From Enterobacteria phage phiC600P9, in the sequence record MZ681930.1: a DNA stretch of 64,000 nucleotides, one strand, 5' to 3'. The notes under the pieces were generated by a model. It was not told the origin of the DNA, ran no database searches, and saw only the letters and a program-made list of their open reading frames with translations. A program made the position numbers and the translations under genes. Positions 2,727 through 40,177 of the stretch are shown in pieces; position 1 is the first letter of the stretch, and every line of letters begins with the position of its first letter.

Positions 2727-3034
2727 CCTTGCGGCAACCTTGTCGGGGTTCCACCTGCTAAGGCAAGTGTTTGTACGAAACGCCGGGACTTGAACCCGGT
2801 TATTAAGTAGTTGACGCTACTCAATATTTTTAAAAGGCCATATCTCGACCATATCCGAACGTTCCGTCAAAAACGCTACTCGGCTTACGGCAAAGATATT
2901 TCCTCGAATCGATAATTCGGTGCGCCGTTTCTGCTGTGATGTAAGGGGATATTAACAAATCGTAAAGATTTATTAAGACCAGTCCTTACTCAGGGAACAT
3001 CAGTCCGACGACTTACCGGTAGCGACCCGGTTTC
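2727..3034 (-). ncRNA. possible small stable RNA(s) downstream of the tRNA cluster (T4 species 1/2, RNA C/D analogue)
   Basis: About 300 nt with no ORF between gene 3035-3385 and the terminator; contains a tRNA T-arm-like element (CCGGGTTCAAGTCCCGG on minus strand, + coords 2783-2799) but no full cloverleaf; positional analogy only. Confidence 0.25.
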
Positions 3035-3385
3035 TTAATATTCTTTTAAAGCATCAATCTGTTCACGGCGTTTACGCCATAAATCAATTGCTTCATACGC
3101 GGATTCAGCATTTCGAATTGGTCGGCATTTATGTAAAGACTTGTGATTTTGATATTTTGTAGATAATGGAATTTTATCTAAAAGGTCTTTACGTTCAAAG
3201 TATTCGTAACCATCTAAACCAAATGAACGATTTTTGAGAAATTGCCAATGACCGTATTCGTTTTGGATGTAAATATAATCCGCGTGTTGATAAAGCAAAT
3301 TAGTTTCACGAGATGAGATATGGTTTTCATATTCATTGAAGTAAAATGTTAAATCATGAACTACTAAATAAACATTACCTTTCAT
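3035..3385 (-). CDS. hypothetical protein, 116 aa
   Basis: ATG at 3383-3385 with SD GAGGA upstream; no motif recognised. Confidence 0.45.
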   Translation of the reverse strand: MKGNVYLVVHDLTFYFNEYENHISSRETNLLYQHADYIYIQNEYGHWQFLKNRSFGLDGYEYFERKDLLDKIPLSTKYQNHKSLHKCRPIRNAESAYEAIDLWRKRREQIDALKEY

Positions 3386-3403
3386 ATTTTCCTCACTTAT
3401 AAT

Positions 3404-3479
3404 TGGTCGAGGCAGTAGGGATCGAACCTACGACCCAGGACTTAGAAGGTCCTTGCTCTTCCTTCTGAGCTATGCCTCG
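3404..3479 (-). tRNA. tRNA-Arg (anticodon TCT), CCA encoded
   Basis: Hand-folded cloverleaf on minus strand: 7-bp acceptor stem, anticodon loop CTTCTAA, T-arm GTAGG-TTCGATC-CCTAC. Confidence 0.8.
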
Positions 3480-3483
3480 TATT

Positions 3484-3558
3484 TGGCGGACGTGATAGGA
3501 TTCGAACCTATAACCAATCGCTTAACAGGCGATCGCTCTGCCATTGAGCTACACATCC
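3484..3558 (-). tRNA. tRNA-Asn (anticodon GTT), CCA encoded
   Basis: Hand-folded: acceptor GGATGTG/CACGTCC, anticodon stem ATCGC/GCGAT with loop CTGTTAA, T-loop TTCGAAT. Confidence 0.75.
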
Positions 3559-3562
3559 AAAT

Positions 3563-3649
3563 TGGTGGGGAGTGATGGAGTCGAACCACCCGAGTCGCAA
3601 TGACAATGGATTTACAGTCCACACCGCTACCTCTACGGGATAACTCCCC
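3563..3649 (-). tRNA. tRNA-Tyr (anticodon GTA), type II with long variable arm, CCA encoded
   Basis: Hand-folded: acceptor GGGGAGT/ACTCCCC, anticodon loop CTGTAAA, 87 nt. Confidence 0.7.
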
Positions 3650-3658
3650 AAATTAATT

Positions 3659-3733
3659 TGGTGGCCCTGGGTGGAATTGAACCACCATCTGGCGATTATG
3701 AGTCGCTTGCTTGAACCTTCCAGCTACAGGGCC
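3659..3733 (-). tRNA. tRNA with CAT anticodon (Met, or Ile2 if lysidine-modified like T4 tRNA-Ile)
   Basis: Hand-folded: acceptor GGCCCTG/CAGGGCC, anticodon loop CTCATAA, T-arm GGTGG-TTCAATT-CCACC. Confidence 0.75.
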
Positions 3734-3734
3734 T

Positions 3735-3810
3735 TGGTGCTGATTGACGGAATCGAACCGCCGACCTTCTCATTACAAGTGAGTTGCTCTACCTACTGAG
3801 CTAAATCAGC
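3735..3810 (-). tRNA. tRNA-Thr (anticodon TGT), CCA encoded
   Basis: Hand-folded: acceptor GCTGATT/AATCAGC, D-arm GCTC-AGTAGGTA-GAGC, anticodon loop CTTGTAA. Confidence 0.8.
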
Positions 3811-3815
3811 AAAAC

Positions 3816-3905
3816 TGGCGGAGGCGATAGGATTTGAACCTATGAGTCGCCGGAGCGACTGCCGGTTTTCAAGACCGGTGCATTAAACCACTCTGCCACG
3901 CCTCC
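3816..3905 (-). tRNA. tRNA-Ser (anticodon TGA), type II, CCA encoded
   Basis: Hand-folded: acceptor GGAGGCG/CGCCTCC, anticodon stem CCGGT/ACCGG with loop CTTGAAA, long variable arm. Confidence 0.8.
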
Positions 3906-3911
3906 AAATAT

Positions 3912-4520
3912 TTATATATTGCTAATTTGATTTAGAATTCTTTTTGCTTGAGTATGACTTACGCCAATATGCTTAGCATATTTAGATAATTCACCACGCT
4001 TAGAAAAATCATATAATTTAGAAATTTCTATTCTTCTTTTTCTTTCATCCGCAGAAACTTTTGCTTCGTTTGCTTTTGCTATTTTACGTTTAGCTTCTTG
4101 AGAATGATTTTTACCAGCAAAGCCATTCTTCATTAATCCATTTGAAGACCATCCTTTTAATTTTCCGTTAGAATGTGCCTTTTTAACACCCAATGAAATT
4201 AATTCGCGTTGCTGATCTGTCATAGGATAATTATTTATATGGTCCCATCCACCTTCTCCGCCAAGTTTTAAATTATACACATCTGGTCTATTTAAAAACT
4301 CTTCTGTGACAATATTTTTCTCGGCTTCAAGCATAGATTCTTTATCATCAAAATACTCTAATATTTCTTTAGAGAAATTTTCTATACCATACTTGTCTTG
4401 GGCTCTTTTTAATAATTTACCAGAACCCATATATCCATCATCTAAATTTTCGGTAGAATGCACACCAATATAAATTTTATTATTAATTTTATTTGTTATT
4501 TTATAAAGATAAAAATGCAT
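3912..4520 (-). CDS. segB: SegB-like GIY-YIG homing endonuclease inside the tRNA cluster
   Basis: GIY-YIG motifs (YLYKITN...KIYIGVHS...DGYMGSGK); position between tRNA sub-clusters as in T4. ORF track extends to 4562, but the ATG at 4518-4520 puts the GIY motif at residues 4-6 as in other Seg proteins. Confidence 0.7.
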   Translation of the reverse strand: MHFYLYKITNKINNKIYIGVHSTENLDDGYMGSGKLLKRAQDKYGIENFSKEILEYFDDKESMLEAEKNIVTEEFLNRPDVYNLKLGGEGGWDHINNYPMTDQQRELISLGVKKAHSNGKLKGWSSNGLMKNGFAGKNHSQEAKRKIAKANEAKVSADERKRRIEISKLYDFSKRGELSKYAKHIGVSHTQAKRILNQISNI

Positions 4521-4566
4521 ATCAGTCCCTAATAAAGAACTGAGCGTCTCACGACGAGTCATAAAT

Positions 4567-4640
<74 letters not shown>

Positions 4641-4645
4641 AAATT

Positions 4646-4732
4646 TGGTGCGAGAAGTGGGACTCGAACCCACAAGGAAATCATTCCGCAGCATTTTAAG
4701 TGCTGTGCCTTTACCAATTTGACCATTCTCGC
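4646..4732 (-). tRNA. tRNA-Leu (anticodon TAA), type II, CCA encoded
   Basis: Hand-folded: acceptor GCGAGAA/TTCTCGC, anticodon stem CAGCA/TGCTG with loop CTTAAAA, long variable arm. Confidence 0.8.
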
Positions 4733-4733
4733 G

Positions 4734-4806
4734 CTGGGAATAAAGGACTCGAACCTTTGCATCCTGGAATCAAAATCCAGTGCCTTACCAACTTGGCTAA
4801 TTCCCA
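4734..4806 (-). tRNA. tRNA-Gln (anticodon TTG), U1-A72 start, CCA not encoded
   Basis: Hand-folded: acceptor TGGGAAT/ATTCCCA, anticodon stem CTGGA/TCCAG with loop TTTTGAT; the U1:A72 start is a feature I recall for T4 tRNA-Gln. Confidence 0.75.
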
Positions 4807-4903
4807 ATTATTAACAAAGGCTCTCAAGCAAGAACCCTTGATGATAGAGGGTATTAATCAGTGCGATATGAGTTAATAATAACAAATAATTCTTAAAGCA
4901 TAT

Positions 4904-5191
4904 TTACCATTTATGATAATACATATTTACGATGCATTCAAGACCCAAAGGATTCTTGAAAATATCATATTCAAGAGGACCTTTTTCTGTTTCAATAAAG
5001 AAATCAAAATTTACTGTATTAAATTTACGGTCTTCCTTTACTAATTTAACCTGCGAAGATGAACGATCAATGTAAACCTTTTCAACTTCAAAACATGTTA
5101 AAATGCCATAATCATCAATCAAGGCTTTAGCCGCATCTTGATCATATTTATATCCATTTTCAACGGACGATACTTTCGCATAAAGAATCAT
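4904..5191 (-). CDS. hypothetical protein, 95 aa, hypervariable ipI-locus gene
   Basis: Complete ORF with ATG; no motif recognised. Confidence 0.45.
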   Translation of the reverse strand: MILYAKVSSVENGYKYDQDAAKALIDDYGILTCFEVEKVYIDRSSSQVKLVKEDRKFNTVNFDFFIETEKGPLEYDIFKNPLGLECIVNMYYHKW

Positions 5192-5193
5192 TA

Positions 5194-5574
5194 TCAGCCT
5201 TCATCAACAATAGTATGCGTATTGGCATTTACGATTTGCCACCAATCAAAGCGATTAGAACCATAATCTGGTTTGTTTTCATTTTCTTTGATAATGTCAC
5301 GAAGTTCATCTTCAGTAGCGGCTTTCGCGATTAAATCAGCATATCCACCACGAGGATAATAATTATCACCTGCAAAAAGTAAAAAGTTTGGTTTAATGTT
5401 ATTGAACTCTTCAAGAGTAATAACTTTTCCTGACGGTTGAACAATCTCTACATATTTATACCCCAATTTTTGAGCAGCATCTACTGCTCCAAGCAAAGTA
5501 TCATGAGCCCATCCAATTTGACAACCTGGCTTTTCAGATGGATTAGCCTGATAATCCGCATACACTTTGTACAT
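5194..5574 (-). CDS. hypothetical protein, about 126 aa, hypervariable ipI-locus gene
   Basis: ORF-track start at 5583 is GTG; ATG at 5572-5574 has SD AAGGTGA upstream; no motif recognised. Confidence 0.45.
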   Translation of the reverse strand: MYKVYADYQANPSEKPGCQIGWAHDTLLGAVDAAQKLGYKYVEIVQPSGKVITLEEFNNIKPNFLLFAGDNYYPRGGYADLIAKAATEDELRDIIKENENKPDYGSNRFDWWQIVNANTHTIVDEG

Positions 5575-5575
5575 T

Positions 5576-5761
5576 CTATTCACCTTTAGAAATTTTATCC
5601 ATAACGATAGCGATTAAACCAATTAAAAATGCTACTACAAGTGAAAACACATTTTCTGCTGTAGTTAATAATCCGCATATAAATCCAACAAACATTGAAA
5701 AACTAAAAGCGGAAGCAGAAATTGCAATAGCAACATTTCGAATTAATTCACAACGTTTCAT
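5576..5761 (-). CDS. small membrane protein, about 61 aa, one transmembrane helix
   Basis: ATG at 5759-5761 preceded by SD GAGGAGA; hydrophobic stretch AIAISASAFSFSMFVGFICGLL. The longer ORF-track start (5821) would overlap the promoter at 5790-5819. Confidence 0.45.
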   Translation of the reverse strand: MKRCELIRNVAIAISASAFSFSMFVGFICGLLTTAENVFSLVVAFLIGLIAIVMDKISKGE

Positions 5762-5789
5762 TTTATTCTCCTCTGTAGTTGATAGGGTA

Positions 5790-5819
5790 ATAGTATCACT
5801 ACTAAAACCCCGTGTAAAC
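5790..5819 (-). promoter_or_regulatory. T4 early-type sigma70 promoter (minus strand), cassette copy A
   Basis: Minus strand: -35 GTTTAC (+ coords 5814-5819), 18-nt spacer, -10 TACTAT (5790-5795) with TG extension; A/T-rich UP-like region upstream. Confidence 0.5.
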
Positions 5820-5831
5820 AACTTTGTGAAA

Positions 5832-6089
5832 TTATTTTAAATCTTCTAATCGTTTCTTCATCTTAGAACCGTTCTTAGCGATTTCGCCTGCATCAGAGCA
5901 TAATGCTAAAAGCGCTTTAACTTTAGTTTGGTCTCCTTTAAAAGATGAAGGATCGACTGCAGCAGCAAGTTCTTTAATACGAGAGAAAAGACGCTCAGCT
6001 TCAGCTAAAGCCATTCCAAGCTTTACTTCCATACCATGAGAAGATTCAGTAATAGTAGTTTTTGTAGCAAACTCTTTGAAAGTTTTCAT
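5832..6089 (-). CDS. internal protein (ipI-locus type) with capsid targeting sequence, 85 aa
   Basis: N-terminus MKTFKEFATKTTITE-SSHG matches the T4 internal-protein CTS pattern with an I-x-E gp21 cleavage motif; position immediately before 57B corresponds to the T4 ipI locus. Confidence 0.6.
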   Translation of the reverse strand: MKTFKEFATKTTITESSHGMEVKLGMALAEAERLFSRIKELAAAVDPSSFKGDQTKVKALLALCSDAGEIAKNGSKMKKRLEDLK

Positions 6090-6119
6090 TTTATTTTCCT
6101 AATTAATTTTGATGAGGTA

Positions 6120-6149
6120 ATAGTATCACTACCTCATCAGTATGTAAAC
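6120..6149 (-). promoter_or_regulatory. T4 early-type sigma70 promoter (minus strand), cassette copy B
   Basis: Minus strand: -35 GTTTAC (6144-6149), 18-nt spacer, -10 TACTAT (6120-6125); overlaps inverted repeat GATGAGGTA...TACCTCATC (6111-6138). Confidence 0.5.
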
Positions 6150-6161
6150 AACTTTATGAAA

Positions 6162-6858
<697 letters not shown>

Positions 6859-6859
<1 letters not shown>

Positions 6860-7584
6860 TATAGTACCTTTAGTGTATTTTTAATTTTAGAAAAAAGTTC
6901 TTCAAGAGAACCATCGTTTGTAATTACTAAATCGCCATCACGAATTGGCAATCCAGCTTCTGTAATATGAGTATCATTGGATTTTTGACCAGGACGAACT
7001 ACATGAATTACTGTAGCACCCATCGCCCTAGCCGCATCCATTTCATGATCTTGACGAGTATCAGGAACGATATAATAATCATAACCTGAGTTAAATTTAT
7101 CAAGATAATCTAAAGCAAATAATTTTACCCAATACATGCGGTCGAAGTTATTAACAATCAAATCCGTACCTAGGGCTTGCATCAGACGACGGACTGACCA
7201 TTGATCTTCAATATTATTTATAACGTCAATAATCTTATTAAATGCTACGGAATTAACTGATTCTTGTCCTTCGTCATCAAAAACACACACACCTTTAATT
7301 GGGCTTTTACCGTTAAGATAGCAAAATGCTTGTTCCATAATCGTGATTACTTCTGATTTAGTCAGATTTAAATCAGTCTCACGATCATAGTCAATTCCTT
7401 CAAACTCCTTACGAGTTAAGCAAGGATAGTCAGTGTTTGCTGCGAATACGCCCCATGCATAAGCCAATGCATCTTTAATAGGACCAGCAAGTTGATATTT
7501 AACTGCAGAATAATTATTCATGATAAAATCTGCAGTAGTATCTTTTCCACTACGCTTTACACCACTTAAAAAGATTAGTTTCAT
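6859..7584 (-). CDS. 1: deoxynucleoside monophosphate kinase (gp1)
   Basis: 241 aa with P-loop GVKRSGKDT near the N-terminus; size and position as T4 gp1. Confidence 0.85.
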
Positions 7585-37244: not shown

Positions 37245-38810
37245 ATGACTATCAAAACTAAAGCTGAACTTTTGAACAAATGGAAGCCATTACTGGAAGG
37301 TGAAGGTTTACCGGAAATTGCTAATAGCAAACAAGCGATTATCGCTAAAATCTTTGAAAACCAGGAAAAAGATTTCCAGACAGCTCCGGAATATAAAGAC
37401 GAAAAAATTGCTCAGGCATTCGGTTCTTTCTTAACAGAAGCTGAAATCGGTGGTGACCACGGTTACAATGCTACCAACATCGCTGCAGGTCAGACTTCTG
37501 GCGCAGTAACTCAGATTGGCCCAGCTGTTATGGGTATGGTACGTCGTGCTATTCCTAACCTGATTGCTTTCGATATTTGTGGTGTTCAGCCGATGAACAG
37601 CCCGACCGGTCAGGTATTCGCACTGCGCGCAGTATATGGTAAAGACCCAATTGCTTCCGGTGCTAAAGAAGCATTCCACCCAATGTATGGTCCAGATGCA
37701 ATGTTCTCTGGTCAGGGTGCTGCTAAGAAATTCACAGCTCTGGCTGCTAGCACACAAACCGTTGTAGGTGATATCTATACTCACTTCTTCCAGGAAACTG
37801 GTACTGTGTATCTGCAAGCTTCCGCTGTAGTAACAATTAGTTCAAGCGCAACTGATGCAGATAAATTAGATGCTGAAATTAAGAAACAAATGGAAGCTGG
37901 TGCACTGGTAGAAATCGCTGAAGGTATGGCTACTTCTATCGCTGAACTCCAGGAAGGTTTCAACGGTTCTACCGATAACCCATGGAATGAAATGGGCTTC
38001 CGTATCGATAAACAAGTTATCGAAGCTAAATCTCGCCAGCTGAAAGCTGCTTACTCTATTGAATTAGCACAAGACCTCCGCGCTGTTCACGGTATGGATG
38101 CTGATGCTGAACTGTCTGGTATTCTGGCTACAGAAATCATGCTGGAAATCAACCGTGAAGTTGTTGATTGGATTAACTACTCAGCTCAGGTTGGTAAATC
38201 TGGTATGACCCTGACTCCAGGTTCTAAAGCTGGTGTATTTGACTTCCAGGATCCGATTGATATTCGTGGTGCTCGCTGGGCGGGTGAATCCTTTAAAGCT
38301 CTGTTGTTCCAGATTGACAAAGAAGCAGTTGAAATTGCTCGTCAGACTGGTCGTGGTGAAGGTAACTTCATTATCGCTTCCCGTAACGTAGTTAACGTTC
38401 TGGCTTCAGTTGATACCGGCATTTCTTATGCTGCACAAGGTCTGGCTACCGGCTTTAACACTGATACTACCAAGTCAGTATTTGCTGGCGTTCTGGGTGG
38501 TAAATACCGTGTATATATCGACCAGTATGCTAAACAGGATTATTTCACTGTAGGTTATAAAGGTCCGAACGAAATGGATGCTGGTATTTACTACGCTCCA
38601 TATGTAGCTCTGACTCCGCTGCGTGGTTCCGATCCGAAGAACTTCCAACCAGTAATGGGATTCAAAACTCGTTACGGTATCGGTATCAACCCATTTGCAG
38701 AATCCGCTGCTCAGGCTCCGGCTTCTCGCATCCAGAGCGGTATGCCTTCTATTCTGAATAGCCTTGGTAAAAACGCTTACTTCCGCCGTGTATATGTTAA
38801 AGGTATCTAA
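37245..38810 (+). CDS. 23: major capsid protein gp23
   Basis: 521 aa as T4 gp23; codon usage visibly biased toward highly expressed codons. Confidence 0.95.
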   Translation: MTIKTKAELLNKWKPLLEGEGLPEIANSKQAIIAKIFENQEKDFQTAPEYKDEKIAQAFGSFLTEAEIGGDHGYNATNIAAGQTSGAVTQIGPAVMGMVRRAIPNLIAFDICGVQPMNSPTGQVFALRAVYGKDPIASGAKEAFHPMYGPDAMFSGQGAAKKFTALAASTQTVVGDIYTHFFQETGTVYLQASAVVTISSSATDADKLDAEIKKQMEAGALVEIAEGMATSIAELQEGFNGSTDNPWNEMGFRIDKQVIEAKSRQLKAAYSIELAQDLRAVHGMDADAELSGILATEIMLEINREVVDWINYSAQVGKSGMTLTPGSKAGVFDFQDPIDIRGARWAGESFKALLFQIDKEAVEIARQTGRGEGNFIIASRNVVNVLASVDTGISYAAQGLATGFNTDTTKSVFAGVLGGKYRVYIDQYAKQDYFTVGYKGPNEMDAGIYYAPYVALTPLRGSDPKNFQPVMGFKTRYGIGINPFAESAAQAPASRIQSGMPSILNSLGKNAYFRRVYVKGI

Positions 38811-38825
38811 TCTTTGACGATTTAA

Positions 38826-38846
38826 GGGACCTTCGGGTCCCTTTAG
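38826..38846 (+). terminator. intrinsic terminator after gene 23
   Basis: Hairpin GGGACCTTCGGGTCCC followed by a T-rich tract. Confidence 0.65.
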
Positions 38847-38858
38847 TTGTTTTTATGG

Positions 38859-38866
38859 TATAAATA
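38859..38866 (+). promoter_or_regulatory. T4 late promoter TATAAATA for gene 24
   Basis: Exact TATAAATA about 28 nt upstream of the gene 24 ATG. Confidence 0.7.
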
Positions 38867-38893
38867 AATCATATAAACCAAAAGGAAAGCGCA

Positions 38894-40177
38894 ATGGCTA
38901 AAATCAACGAACTTCTGCGCGAATCAACCACAACGAATAGCAACTCAATCGGTCGCCCAAATCTCGTTGCTTTGACTCGCGCTACCACTAAATTAATATA
39001 TTCTGACATTGTAGCAACGCAAAGAACTAATCAACCTGTTGCTGCTTTTTATGGTATCAAATACCTTAACCCAGATAACGAATTTACATTTAAAACTGGT
39101 GCTACTTACGCTGGCGAAGCTGGGTACGTAGACCGAGAACAAATCACAGAATTAACAGAAGAGTCTAAATTAACTCTCAATAAAGGCGATTTATTCAAAT
39201 ATAATAATATCGTTTATAAAGTATTAGAAGATACACCATTTGCTGATATTGAAGAAAGCGATTTAGAATTAGCTCTTCAGATTGCAATTGTTCTTTTAAA
39301 GGTTCGTCTATTTTCTGATGCTGCAGTAACAAGCAAATTTGAAAGCTCTGATAGCGAAATTGCGGATGCTAGATTCCAGATTAATAAATGGCAAACCGCA
39401 GTTAAATCTCGTAAACTTAAAACTGGCATCACAGTTGAATTAGCGCAAGATTTAGAAGCAAATGGATTCGATGCTCCTAATTTCTTGGAAGATTTGCTTG
39501 CAACTGAAATGGCAGATGAAATCAATAAAGATATTCTGCAATCTTTGATTACAGTATCAAAACGCTATAAAGTTACAGGAATTACTGATACTGGATTCAT
39601 TGATTTGAGTTATGCATCTGCACCTGAAGCTGGTCGTTCATTATACCGAATGGTATGTGAAATGGTTTCGCATATCCAAAAAGAATCAACTTATACTGCA
39701 ACGTTCTGTGTTGCTTCAGCTCGTGCCGCTGCGATTCTTGCTGCATCAGGTTGGTTAAAACATAAACCAGAAGATGATAAATATCTTTCACAAAATGCCT
39801 ACGGGTTCTTAGCTAATGGTTTACCGCTTTATTGCGATACTAACAGCCCATTAGATTATGTAATCGTTGGTGTAGTAGAAAATATTGGCGAAAAAGAAAT
39901 TGTTGGATCAATTTTCTATGCTCCGTATACAGAAGGTCTTGACTTAGATGACCCTGAACATGTAGGTGCATTTAAAGTTGTAGTTGATCCAGAAAGCTTA
40001 CAACCATCTATCGGTTTATTGGTTAGATATGCTTTATCTGCAAATCCTTACACCGTAGCAAAAGATGAAAAAGAAGCAAGAATAATTGATGGTGGAGACA
40101 TGGATAAAATGGCGGGTCGTTCAGATTTGTCTGTTTTATTAGGTGTTAAATTACCAAAAATTATCGTTGATGAATAA
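38894..40177 (+). CDS. 24: capsid vertex protein gp24
   Basis: 427 aa as T4 gp24; gp23 paralogue. Confidence 0.9.
   Translation: MAKINELLRESTTTNSNSIGRPNLVALTRATTKLIYSDIVATQRTNQPVAAFYGIKYLNPDNEFTFKTGATYAGEAGYVDREQITELTEESKLTLNKGDLFKYNNIVYKVLEDTPFADIEESDLELALQIAIVLLKVRLFSDAAVTSKFESSDSEIADARFQINKWQTAVKSRKLKTGITVELAQDLEANGFDAPNFLEDLLATEMADEINKDILQSLITVSKRYKVTGITDTGFIDLSYASAPEAGRSLYRMVCEMVSHIQKESTYTATFCVASARAAAILAASGWLKHKPEDDKYLSQNAYGFLANGLPLYCDTNSPLDYVIVGVVENIGEKEIVGSIFYAPYTEGLDLDDPEHVGAFKVVVDPESLQPSIGLLVRYALSANPYTVAKDEKEARIIDGGDMDKMAGRSDLSVLLGVKLPKIIVDE

Follow-up and report, generated by a model that had tools for sequence, protein, structure and literature searches.

Sequence comparison identifies the 64,000-nucleotide stretch of Enterobacteria phage phiC600P9 DNA studied here (MZ681930.1; hereafter the window) as a Tequatrovirus genome, and its positions 4807-6160 as the classical T-even ipI locus. 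The best explanation of this locus as a whole, and one we consider probable, is an ipI slot filled by a single cassette, ip5, whose product is an internal head protein injected as an anti-defense factor. The block lies between a tRNA-Gln gene (4733-4806) and the stop codon of 57B and contains four minus-strand genes. Their coordinates and translations, as given in an earlier reading made from the letters alone (the sequence-only reading), are correct according to the open reading frame (ORF) listing and are the same in annotated phages. Closest to 57B is ip5 (5832-6089), encoding the 85-aa precursor of the internal protein Ip5, followed by orthologues of T4 trna.4, trna.3, and trna.2; on sequence, these four identities are virtually certain. 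Gene order and boundaries are annotated alike in phiC600P9, RB51, GiZh, Bas37, and T4. A megablast search of the region against GenBank phages returned 835 records, headed by phiC600P9 (MT630408) with 100% DNA identity. The same interval between 57B and trna.4 holds ipI in T4, and the locus was rightly taken to be an ipI-type slot.

The 85-aa protein matches PHROG 3499 and has the same sequence, at 100% identity, as RB15 Ip5 and bas37_0261 of BASEL phage Bas37; its identity to T2 Ip5 is 98.8%. In RB51 the four genes carry the names tRNA.2, tRNA.3, tRNA.4, and Ip5, with a note likening Ip5 to its namesakes in T6, T2, RB15, and RB70, while GiZh calls the 85-aa gene ipV and notes it as replacing ipI. 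The ip5 gene of RB15 was reportedly first described by Repoila in 1994. Publications dating from 1994 to 2025 already cover the locus, gene name, leader, cassette shuffling, and anti-defense hypothesis, and the region holds no new sequence finding. The sequence-only reading is therefore partly supported: the class of mechanism was right and has meanwhile found some further support, and a known locus was correctly rediscovered, but the novelty that it implied is not borne out. The protein is not the close IPI, IPII, or IPIII orthologue which that reading had named as its counter-case, but it is an internal protein that already has a name.

Ip5 has the features of a T-even internal protein, namely, a capsid-targeting sequence (CTS) leader, an L/I-x-E motif soon after it, and a gene in the internal-protein (Ip) locus from 57B to trna.4. 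Under the CTS rule, aromatic residues 4 and 7 carry the targeting of IPIII, and L/I-x-E is the motif cleaved by gp21 (PMC9026906). The N terminus of Ip5, MKTFKEFATKTTITE, starts with MKTFKEF, with aromatic F4 and F7, and its first L/I-x-E motif is I13-T14-E15, the counterpart of I17-T18-E19 in T4 IPI; both leader and motif had been picked out in the sequence-only reading. From sequence and motif search, the capsid-targeting propeptide corresponds to ip5 codons 1 to 15 (6045-6089, minus strand) and ends in the predicted gp21 motif I-T-E. The leader pattern MKT[FY][KQSE][EKT]F has a single match in the six-frame translation of the window and is therefore not a chance match. The predicted cut after E15 would leave 70 aa (7.5 kDa), with an isoelectric point (pI) of 9.2 and 13 Lys or Arg among these residues. 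Packaging and processing of Ip5 are, in our view, highly probable.

Beyond the leader, Ip5 stands apart from the T4 internal proteins. In BLASTP comparisons with IPI, IPII, and IPIII, the leader alone aligns (54% identity with the IPI leader over 26 aa), and the mature part has no match in the three proteins, as the sequence-only reading had held. AlphaFold2, working from a shallow alignment, predicts a disordered leader (residues 1 to 12) and a helical hairpin formed by H17-44 and H54-84, with a mean predicted local distance difference test (pLDDT) score of 71. In a Foldseek comparison with the PDB, the model matched generic helical hairpins alone (designed coiled coils and the LSD1 tower domain), with E values all above 0.4. 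Among 1.84 billion cluster representatives, an exhaustive HMMER search recovered three proteins, and a word-indexed remote homology search found no match other than Ip5. The remote homology search and structure prediction proposed in the sequence-only reading lead to a tiny family confined to Tevenvirinae and to a helical-hairpin model. None of the four proteins of the block had an above-threshold match in Pfam, NCBIfam, or PADLOC, and PDB sequence searches gave no match.

Ip5 is among the commonest slot occupants in sequenced Tequatroviruses. It is present at an identity of at least 80% in 268 GenBank phage records, T2 included, and its mature sequence is at least 95% identical in 249 records; the corresponding record counts are ~500 for 57B (at least 95% identity), 280 for IPI, and 218 for a 77-aa cassette. 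A branch with 47.6% identity occurs in 228 records, mostly Mosigvirus, and is sited at the other Ip locus, between lysozyme gene e and denV. The Ip5 family is therefore present at both Ip loci, in different genera. In E. coli O157 typing phage 6, the 47.6% homologue lies at 2501-2782 of the stretch examined, between e and denV.

Precedent for an anti-defense role comes from other internal proteins. For T4 Ip1, Ip2, and Ip3, Silas et al. showed inhibition of one type IV GmrSD enzyme apiece, without cross-protection, and they proposed GmrSD variants as the targets of every protein encoded at the two Ip loci (Nat Commun 2025, PMC12373910). In addition, a Bas37 gene at the ipI locus inhibits McrBC (HIDEN-SEQ preprint, bioRxiv 10.1101/2025.11.20.689424). 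The published McrBC inhibitor was considered as a match for the window gene and rejected, as in Bas37 it is the 77-aa cassette after ip5, bas37_0260, which the window lacks. When similarity to this type of protein was examined with the GiZh ipVI orthologue, the leader alone matched (17 aa, E = 0.03). Since insertions in ip5 are neutral on K-12, the McrBC phenotype is that of bas37_0260 and not of Ip5.

By analogy with these proteins, we favor the following sequence of events. The CTS of the Ip5 precursor, through aromatic residues 4 and 7, would dock on the prohead's gp22 scaffolding core, and the gp21 prohead protease would cleave after I13-T14-E15, freeing a lysine-rich helical hairpin of 70 aa (~7.5 kDa) that would be retained in the head with the DNA. 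Many copies would then be ejected with the DNA into the cell, where Ip5 would bind and block a host factor that, left active, would destroy or abort the entering hydroxymethylcytosine DNA, comparable to Ip1 to Ip3 acting on GmrSD and bas37_0260 on McrBC. An anti-defense role of this kind seems reasonably likely.

A lead to the host target comes from Bas37, which is phage KarlGJung (MZ501089; slot locus at 5554-6121 of the stretch examined). Bas37 Ip5 is identical to the window protein, and the HIDEN-SEQ transposon data are therefore directly applicable. Extended Data Table 7 of that preprint reports the log2 fold change of insertions from K-12 BW25113 to each of five isolates. On K-12, bas37_0261 (ip5) is nonessential, with 18 of 18 TA sites hit. 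On CFT073, ip5 insertions change by -2.09 (adjusted P < 1e-5), a depletion of ~4-fold, and those in 57B (bas37_0262) by -1.56 (adjusted P of 0.003). The values for ip5 and 57B, respectively, are -0.01 and +0.13 on CFE299, -0.01 and -0.86 on CFE303, -0.13 and -0.83 on CFE331, and +0.26 and +0.48 on CFE336, the 57B changes on CFE303 and CFE331 not being significant. The genes downstream of ip5 (bas37_0260, 0259, 0258, and 0257) are not required on CFT073, and polarity on them is therefore no explanation of the ip5 depletion. On CFT073, the loss of 57B insertions may reflect either polarity on ip5 or a separate need for 57B. We note that the preprint text does not discuss the ip5 depletion and that, on the same strain, bas37_0240 (-6.49) and bas37_0239 (-3.62) are depleted much more than ip5.

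These data make it conceivable, though tentatively so, that the target of Ip5 is specific to CFT073. Somewhat more tentative is the fuller proposal that Ip5 is an injected inhibitor of a defense present in the uropathogenic E. coli strain CFT073 and absent from K-12 and the four other clinical isolates, acting through a helical-hairpin fold unlike that of IPI*; its target could then be the GmrSD of this strain, of cluster CLS_001 of Silas et al., or some system other than a type IV restriction enzyme. If true, this would be a new inhibitor-target pair. Knowledge of the Ip5 target would improve host-range prediction for therapeutic T4-like phages and lengthen the list of matched pairs of injected inhibitors and restriction enzymes, and the CFT073-specific depletion offers a concrete and cheap experimental starting point for finding it.

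The immigration control region of CFT073 (NC_004431) contains an intact GmrSD of 697 aa, with GmrSD_N, GmrSD_C, and DUF5655 domains, at 37680-39773 of the stretch examined; in genome numbering, this gene, c5421, occupies 5162679-5164772. That the gene is broken was considered and rejected; RefSeq presents it in two pieces, a DUF262 pseudogene fragment and a 387-aa protein, but the frame is continuous. The same two-piece GmrSD annotation recurs in other genomes. This is the CLS_001 enzyme, and it occurs at an identity of at least 95% in ~1,300 to 1,400 of 5,426 complete E. coli genomes, a prevalence that makes it a less specific target candidate. We regard it as very doubtful that this enzyme is the target of Ip5.

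Several observations weigh against an injected Ip5 directed at host defense. The CFT073 signal is modest, ~4-fold in a pooled library without clean-deletion validation, and the accompanying depletion of 57B may indicate a local or polar effect. With CLS_001 GmrSD present in about a quarter of complete E. coli genomes, a requirement for Ip5 in only one of five uropathogenic isolates would be surprising if this enzyme were the target. Although an anti-defense candidate is the most reasonable reading of the gene, as the sequence-only reading proposed, it is already a published working hypothesis and has been partly tested: in the work of Silas et al., ip4 to ip10 gave no reproducible inhibition of representative GmrSD clusters (PMC12373910). 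T2, an Ip5 carrier, is restricted by CT596 GmrSD, by UTI89_C2960, and by the GmrSD enzymes of ECOR21 and ECOR17 (PMC12373910; PMC4437046), and Ip5 would therefore not be their blocker. For CT596 GmrSD, the published picture is indirect and mixed: T2 is restricted and RB15, which has Ip5 plus three other ips, is unrestricted (PMC4437046, Table 3), a pattern that at face value argues against Ip5 as the CT596 inhibitor. A small basic helical protein could equally be a DNA counter-ion. Finally, in a literature search that did not extend to Repoila 1994, no demonstration of Ip5 in virions or of its injection was found.

If the CFT073 signal were a local or polar effect of insertions in 57B and ip5, acting, for example, through Acb1 function or neighboring transcription and not through the Ip5 protein, Ip5 would be left without a demonstrated phenotype. 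Such an effect would fit the loss of 57B insertions in the same comparison, and the preprint authors concede possible locus-dependent effects on neighbors. Yet ip5 lies downstream of 57B, so that ip5 insertions are not polar on 57B, and the dispensability of bas37_0260 to 0257 on CFT073 removes the genes on the other side. The two signals are also separable, as 57B is mildly depleted on CFE303 and CFE331 whereas ip5 is not. We judge this explanation unlikely.

Alternatively, Ip5 might be a general internal head protein with no host target, serving charge neutralization, DNA condensation, packaging speed, or ejection as a tolerated filler of the slot. The basic composition of mature Ip5 agrees with this, as do nuclear magnetic resonance data showing that internal-protein lysines contact DNA phosphates (cited in PMC3012670), the dispensability of ip5 on K-12 and on four of the five clinical isolates, and the ip4 to ip10 screen, which yielded no GmrSD target (PMC12373910). 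However, a general role leaves the CFT073-specific defect unexplained, nor does it account for a near-invariant mature sequence set against cassette-wise presence and absence. Moreover, all internal proteins of this phage group with known function (Ip1, Ip2, Ip3, and bas37_0260) are specific restriction inhibitors. A role confined to the head appears quite unlikely.

Ip5 carries further L/I-x-E motifs in helix 1, LAE (28-30) and IKE (38-40), and the Mosigvirus homologue has LVE and ISE at the same positions. Least probable of these alternatives, and clearly improbable, is that gp21, which needs very few determinants beyond the motif and cuts core proteins into several fragments (PMC9026906), also cleaves at L28-A29-E30 and I38-K39-E40 to leave short internal peptides like those of gp22 and gp67 and no folded 70-aa effector: all three motif positions, 13-15 included, are kept in the 48%-identical homologue, but the internal motifs lie inside the confidently predicted helix H17-44 (block pLDDT of ~82), their conservation may reflect an amphipathic pattern, and the mature regions of IPI, Ip8, and Ip9 contain or tolerate such motifs.

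Our preferred reading, a slot with an injected anti-defense protein, also rests on how the slot varies among phages. Between 57B and trna.4, T4 has ipI; the window and RB51 have ip5; GiZh and Bas37 have ip5 followed by the 77-aa ip; T2 has ip5 followed by a 102-aa ip; and RB15 has ip5, ip9, ip7, and ip8. In the window, the ip5 cassette is flanked by a 69-nt direct repeat, D1, whose two copies (83% identity, spacing of 330 nt) were located by repeat search. Copy 1 (5779-5847) holds the last four codons and stop of ip5 (E-D-L-K-stop), and copy 2 (6109-6177) holds those of 57B (D-D-L-K-stop). Because the repeat starts within the upstream gene and covers its final four codons, 57B and Ip5 both end in D-L-K-stop. 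The Mosigvirus homologue resembles Ip5 right up to this repeat junction, at ...RLE, and no further, which places a cassette boundary inside the coding sequence.

A promoter and stem-loop module lies upstream of ip5 (6090-6161, minus strand), delineated by promoter scan (6148-6120), RNA folding, and spacer alignment. It consists of TTTACA, a 17-nt spacer, and TG-n-TACTAT, which together are sigma-70-like, with a 13-bp stem-loop over the -10 box and a GGAA ribosome-binding site; the predicted folding energy is -17.8 kcal/mol (z = -3.9). The second module (5762-5831, minus strand), upstream of trna.4, was recognized by promoter scan (5818-5790), repeat D1, and spacer alignment. Across the 12 intergenic spacers of the slot that were aligned, from the window, T4, Bas37, and RB15, the module precedes every cassette and is followed by a GGAG or GGAA ribosome-binding site and ATG AAA. 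Each cassette starts with the promoter, stem-loop, and ribosome-binding module plus conserved leader codons and finishes at the next copy of the module, and the repeated module would supply homology for cassette gain, loss, and swapping. Genome comparison suggests recombination at the modules, and, judged by these elements, the slot variation is modular shuffling of the promoter-early stem-loop (PeSL) type. Authors who earlier discussed such PeSL-mediated shuffling for this locus explicitly tie PeSLs to the 1994 IP-locus observations (PMC4122927). As for late expression, the nearest upstream match to the late-promoter motif TATAAATA in a pattern search lies within gene 1 (7215-7222, minus strand); this, we infer, is a candidate origin of late transcripts running through 57A, 57B, and ip5.

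The upstream boundary of the slot, 57B (6162-6617, minus strand), is the Acb1 anti-CBASS phosphodiesterase (Pfam PF23474, E = 2.6e-60). By BLASTP, it is 100% identical to its T4 counterpart, and 57A is 97.5% identical.

The three genes downstream of ip5, all on the minus strand, had been called unrecognized in the sequence-only reading, but they are T4 trna.4, trna.3, and trna.2 in conserved order, each with its own PHROG family; by these matches, they are conserved T4 genes and not novel cassette genes. The trna.4 orthologue (5576-5761; PHROG 1692) encodes 61 aa, read from an ATG preceded by a GGAG ribosome-binding site, with 100% identity to T4 Trna.4. It had been described as a single-transmembrane protein, but hydropathy reveals two hydrophobic segments, at residues ~10 to 33 and 38 to 54, and it is probably a two-helix membrane hairpin. 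The trna.3 orthologue (5194-5574; PHROG 1411) encodes 126 aa from ATG, or 129 aa from an upstream GTG in the ORF listing, and is 57.3% identical to T4 Trna.3. The protein is a mosaic relative to T4, with 23 of 72 positions identical in the N-terminal part and 56 of 64 in the C-terminal part. Over its first 62 residues, identity to T4 is ~32%, and two or more distinct sequence types of this part occur among phages; its C-terminal 64 residues are 88% identical and have the invariant core NFLLF.G…P.GGY…F.WWQI. PF26894 is found in Trna.3 homologues, and the AlphaFold2 model is an alpha/beta protein (pLDDT of 88) for which the structure search found no PDB neighbor. The trna.2 orthologue (4904-5191; PHROG 2023) encodes 95 aa with 96.8% identity to T4 Trna.2 and had no informative match in library and PDB-sequence searches. 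In the HIDEN-SEQ data, the Bas37 orthologues of Trna.2, Trna.3, and Trna.4 are nonessential and have no conditional phenotype in five strains. The description of the whole locus as hypervariable accordingly holds for the slot from 57B to trna.4 but not for these neighbors, which lie outside the cassette array, Trna.4 and Trna.2 being near-invariant and Trna.3 a mosaic.

Exact T4 late-promoter motifs also occur on the minus strand within trna.3 (5453-5460) and trna.2 (5145-5152), directed at the tRNA cluster, and both belong to D7, a direct repeat of 13 nt. Across the whole window, 24 such motifs were counted, with 9.9 expected by chance. An Rfam scan of positions 3000-7000 found tRNAs and nothing else. 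Within the cluster, a GIY-YIG/NUMOD3 homing endonuclease gene resembling SegB (3912-4562, minus strand; PHROG 314, E = 1e-55) lies between tRNA-Ser and tRNA-Gly. T4, GiZh, and Bas37 have tRNA-Pro at this position, and the window, RB51, and phiC600P9 lack tRNA-Pro. T4 segB is placed elsewhere, between tRNA-Arg and tRNA-Ile, and Bas37 has a homing endonuclease in place of tRNA-Gln. ARAGORN calls the gene at 3659-3733 (minus strand) tRNA-Met (CAT), and its orthologue is annotated as tRNA-Ile in T4, RB51, GiZh, and Bas37; the CAU anticodon is presumably modified so that AUA is read.

Among known systems, the closest to the window locus is Ip5 of RB15 and T2, which agrees with it in sequence, in position directly downstream of 57B, in leader, and in upstream promoter module. 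Nothing substantial separates the RB15 protein; the difference lies in the array, as RB15 has three further cassettes after ip5, whereas in the window ip5 is the sole one. T4 IPI, which as IPI* inhibits the GmrSD enzyme of E. coli CT596, occupies the same slot, has a leader of the form MKTFKEF...ITE, and is similar in size, and gp21 processing and coinjection with DNA are expected to be shared. However, the mature parts have no detectable similarity, and the predicted all-helical hairpin of Ip5 contrasts with the two beta-sheets and flanking helices of IPI* (PMC3012670). The targets would differ as well, as CT596 GmrSD restricts T2 despite its Ip5, and IPI* rescues it (PMC4437046).

The 77-aa bas37_0260 of KarlGJung, named ipVI in GiZh, belongs to the same cassette array, with the same module and type of leader, and in Bas37 stands directly downstream of an identical ip5. 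Its mature sequence, in contrast, is unrelated, and in the window trna.4 comes directly after ip5. The Ip5-like protein of Mosigvirus (RB69ORF127c type) shares 47.6% identity over 82 of 85 residues, the helical hairpin region, the L/I-x-E positions, and a CTS-type leader, but it occupies the ipII/ipIII position next to e, has an acidic pI of 5.5, and continues after ...RLE into a longer, unrelated C-terminal tail. Lastly, the modules resemble PeSLs (Arbiol 2010; Comeau 2014) in combining a sigma-70-like early promoter (TTTACA, N17, TACTAT), a stem-loop, and a ribosome-binding site at the flanks of variable cassettes. They differ in that the stem-loop here overlaps the spacer and -10 box, whereas in phage PST it lies upstream of the promoter, and in that the repeat takes in the final four codons of the gene upstream.

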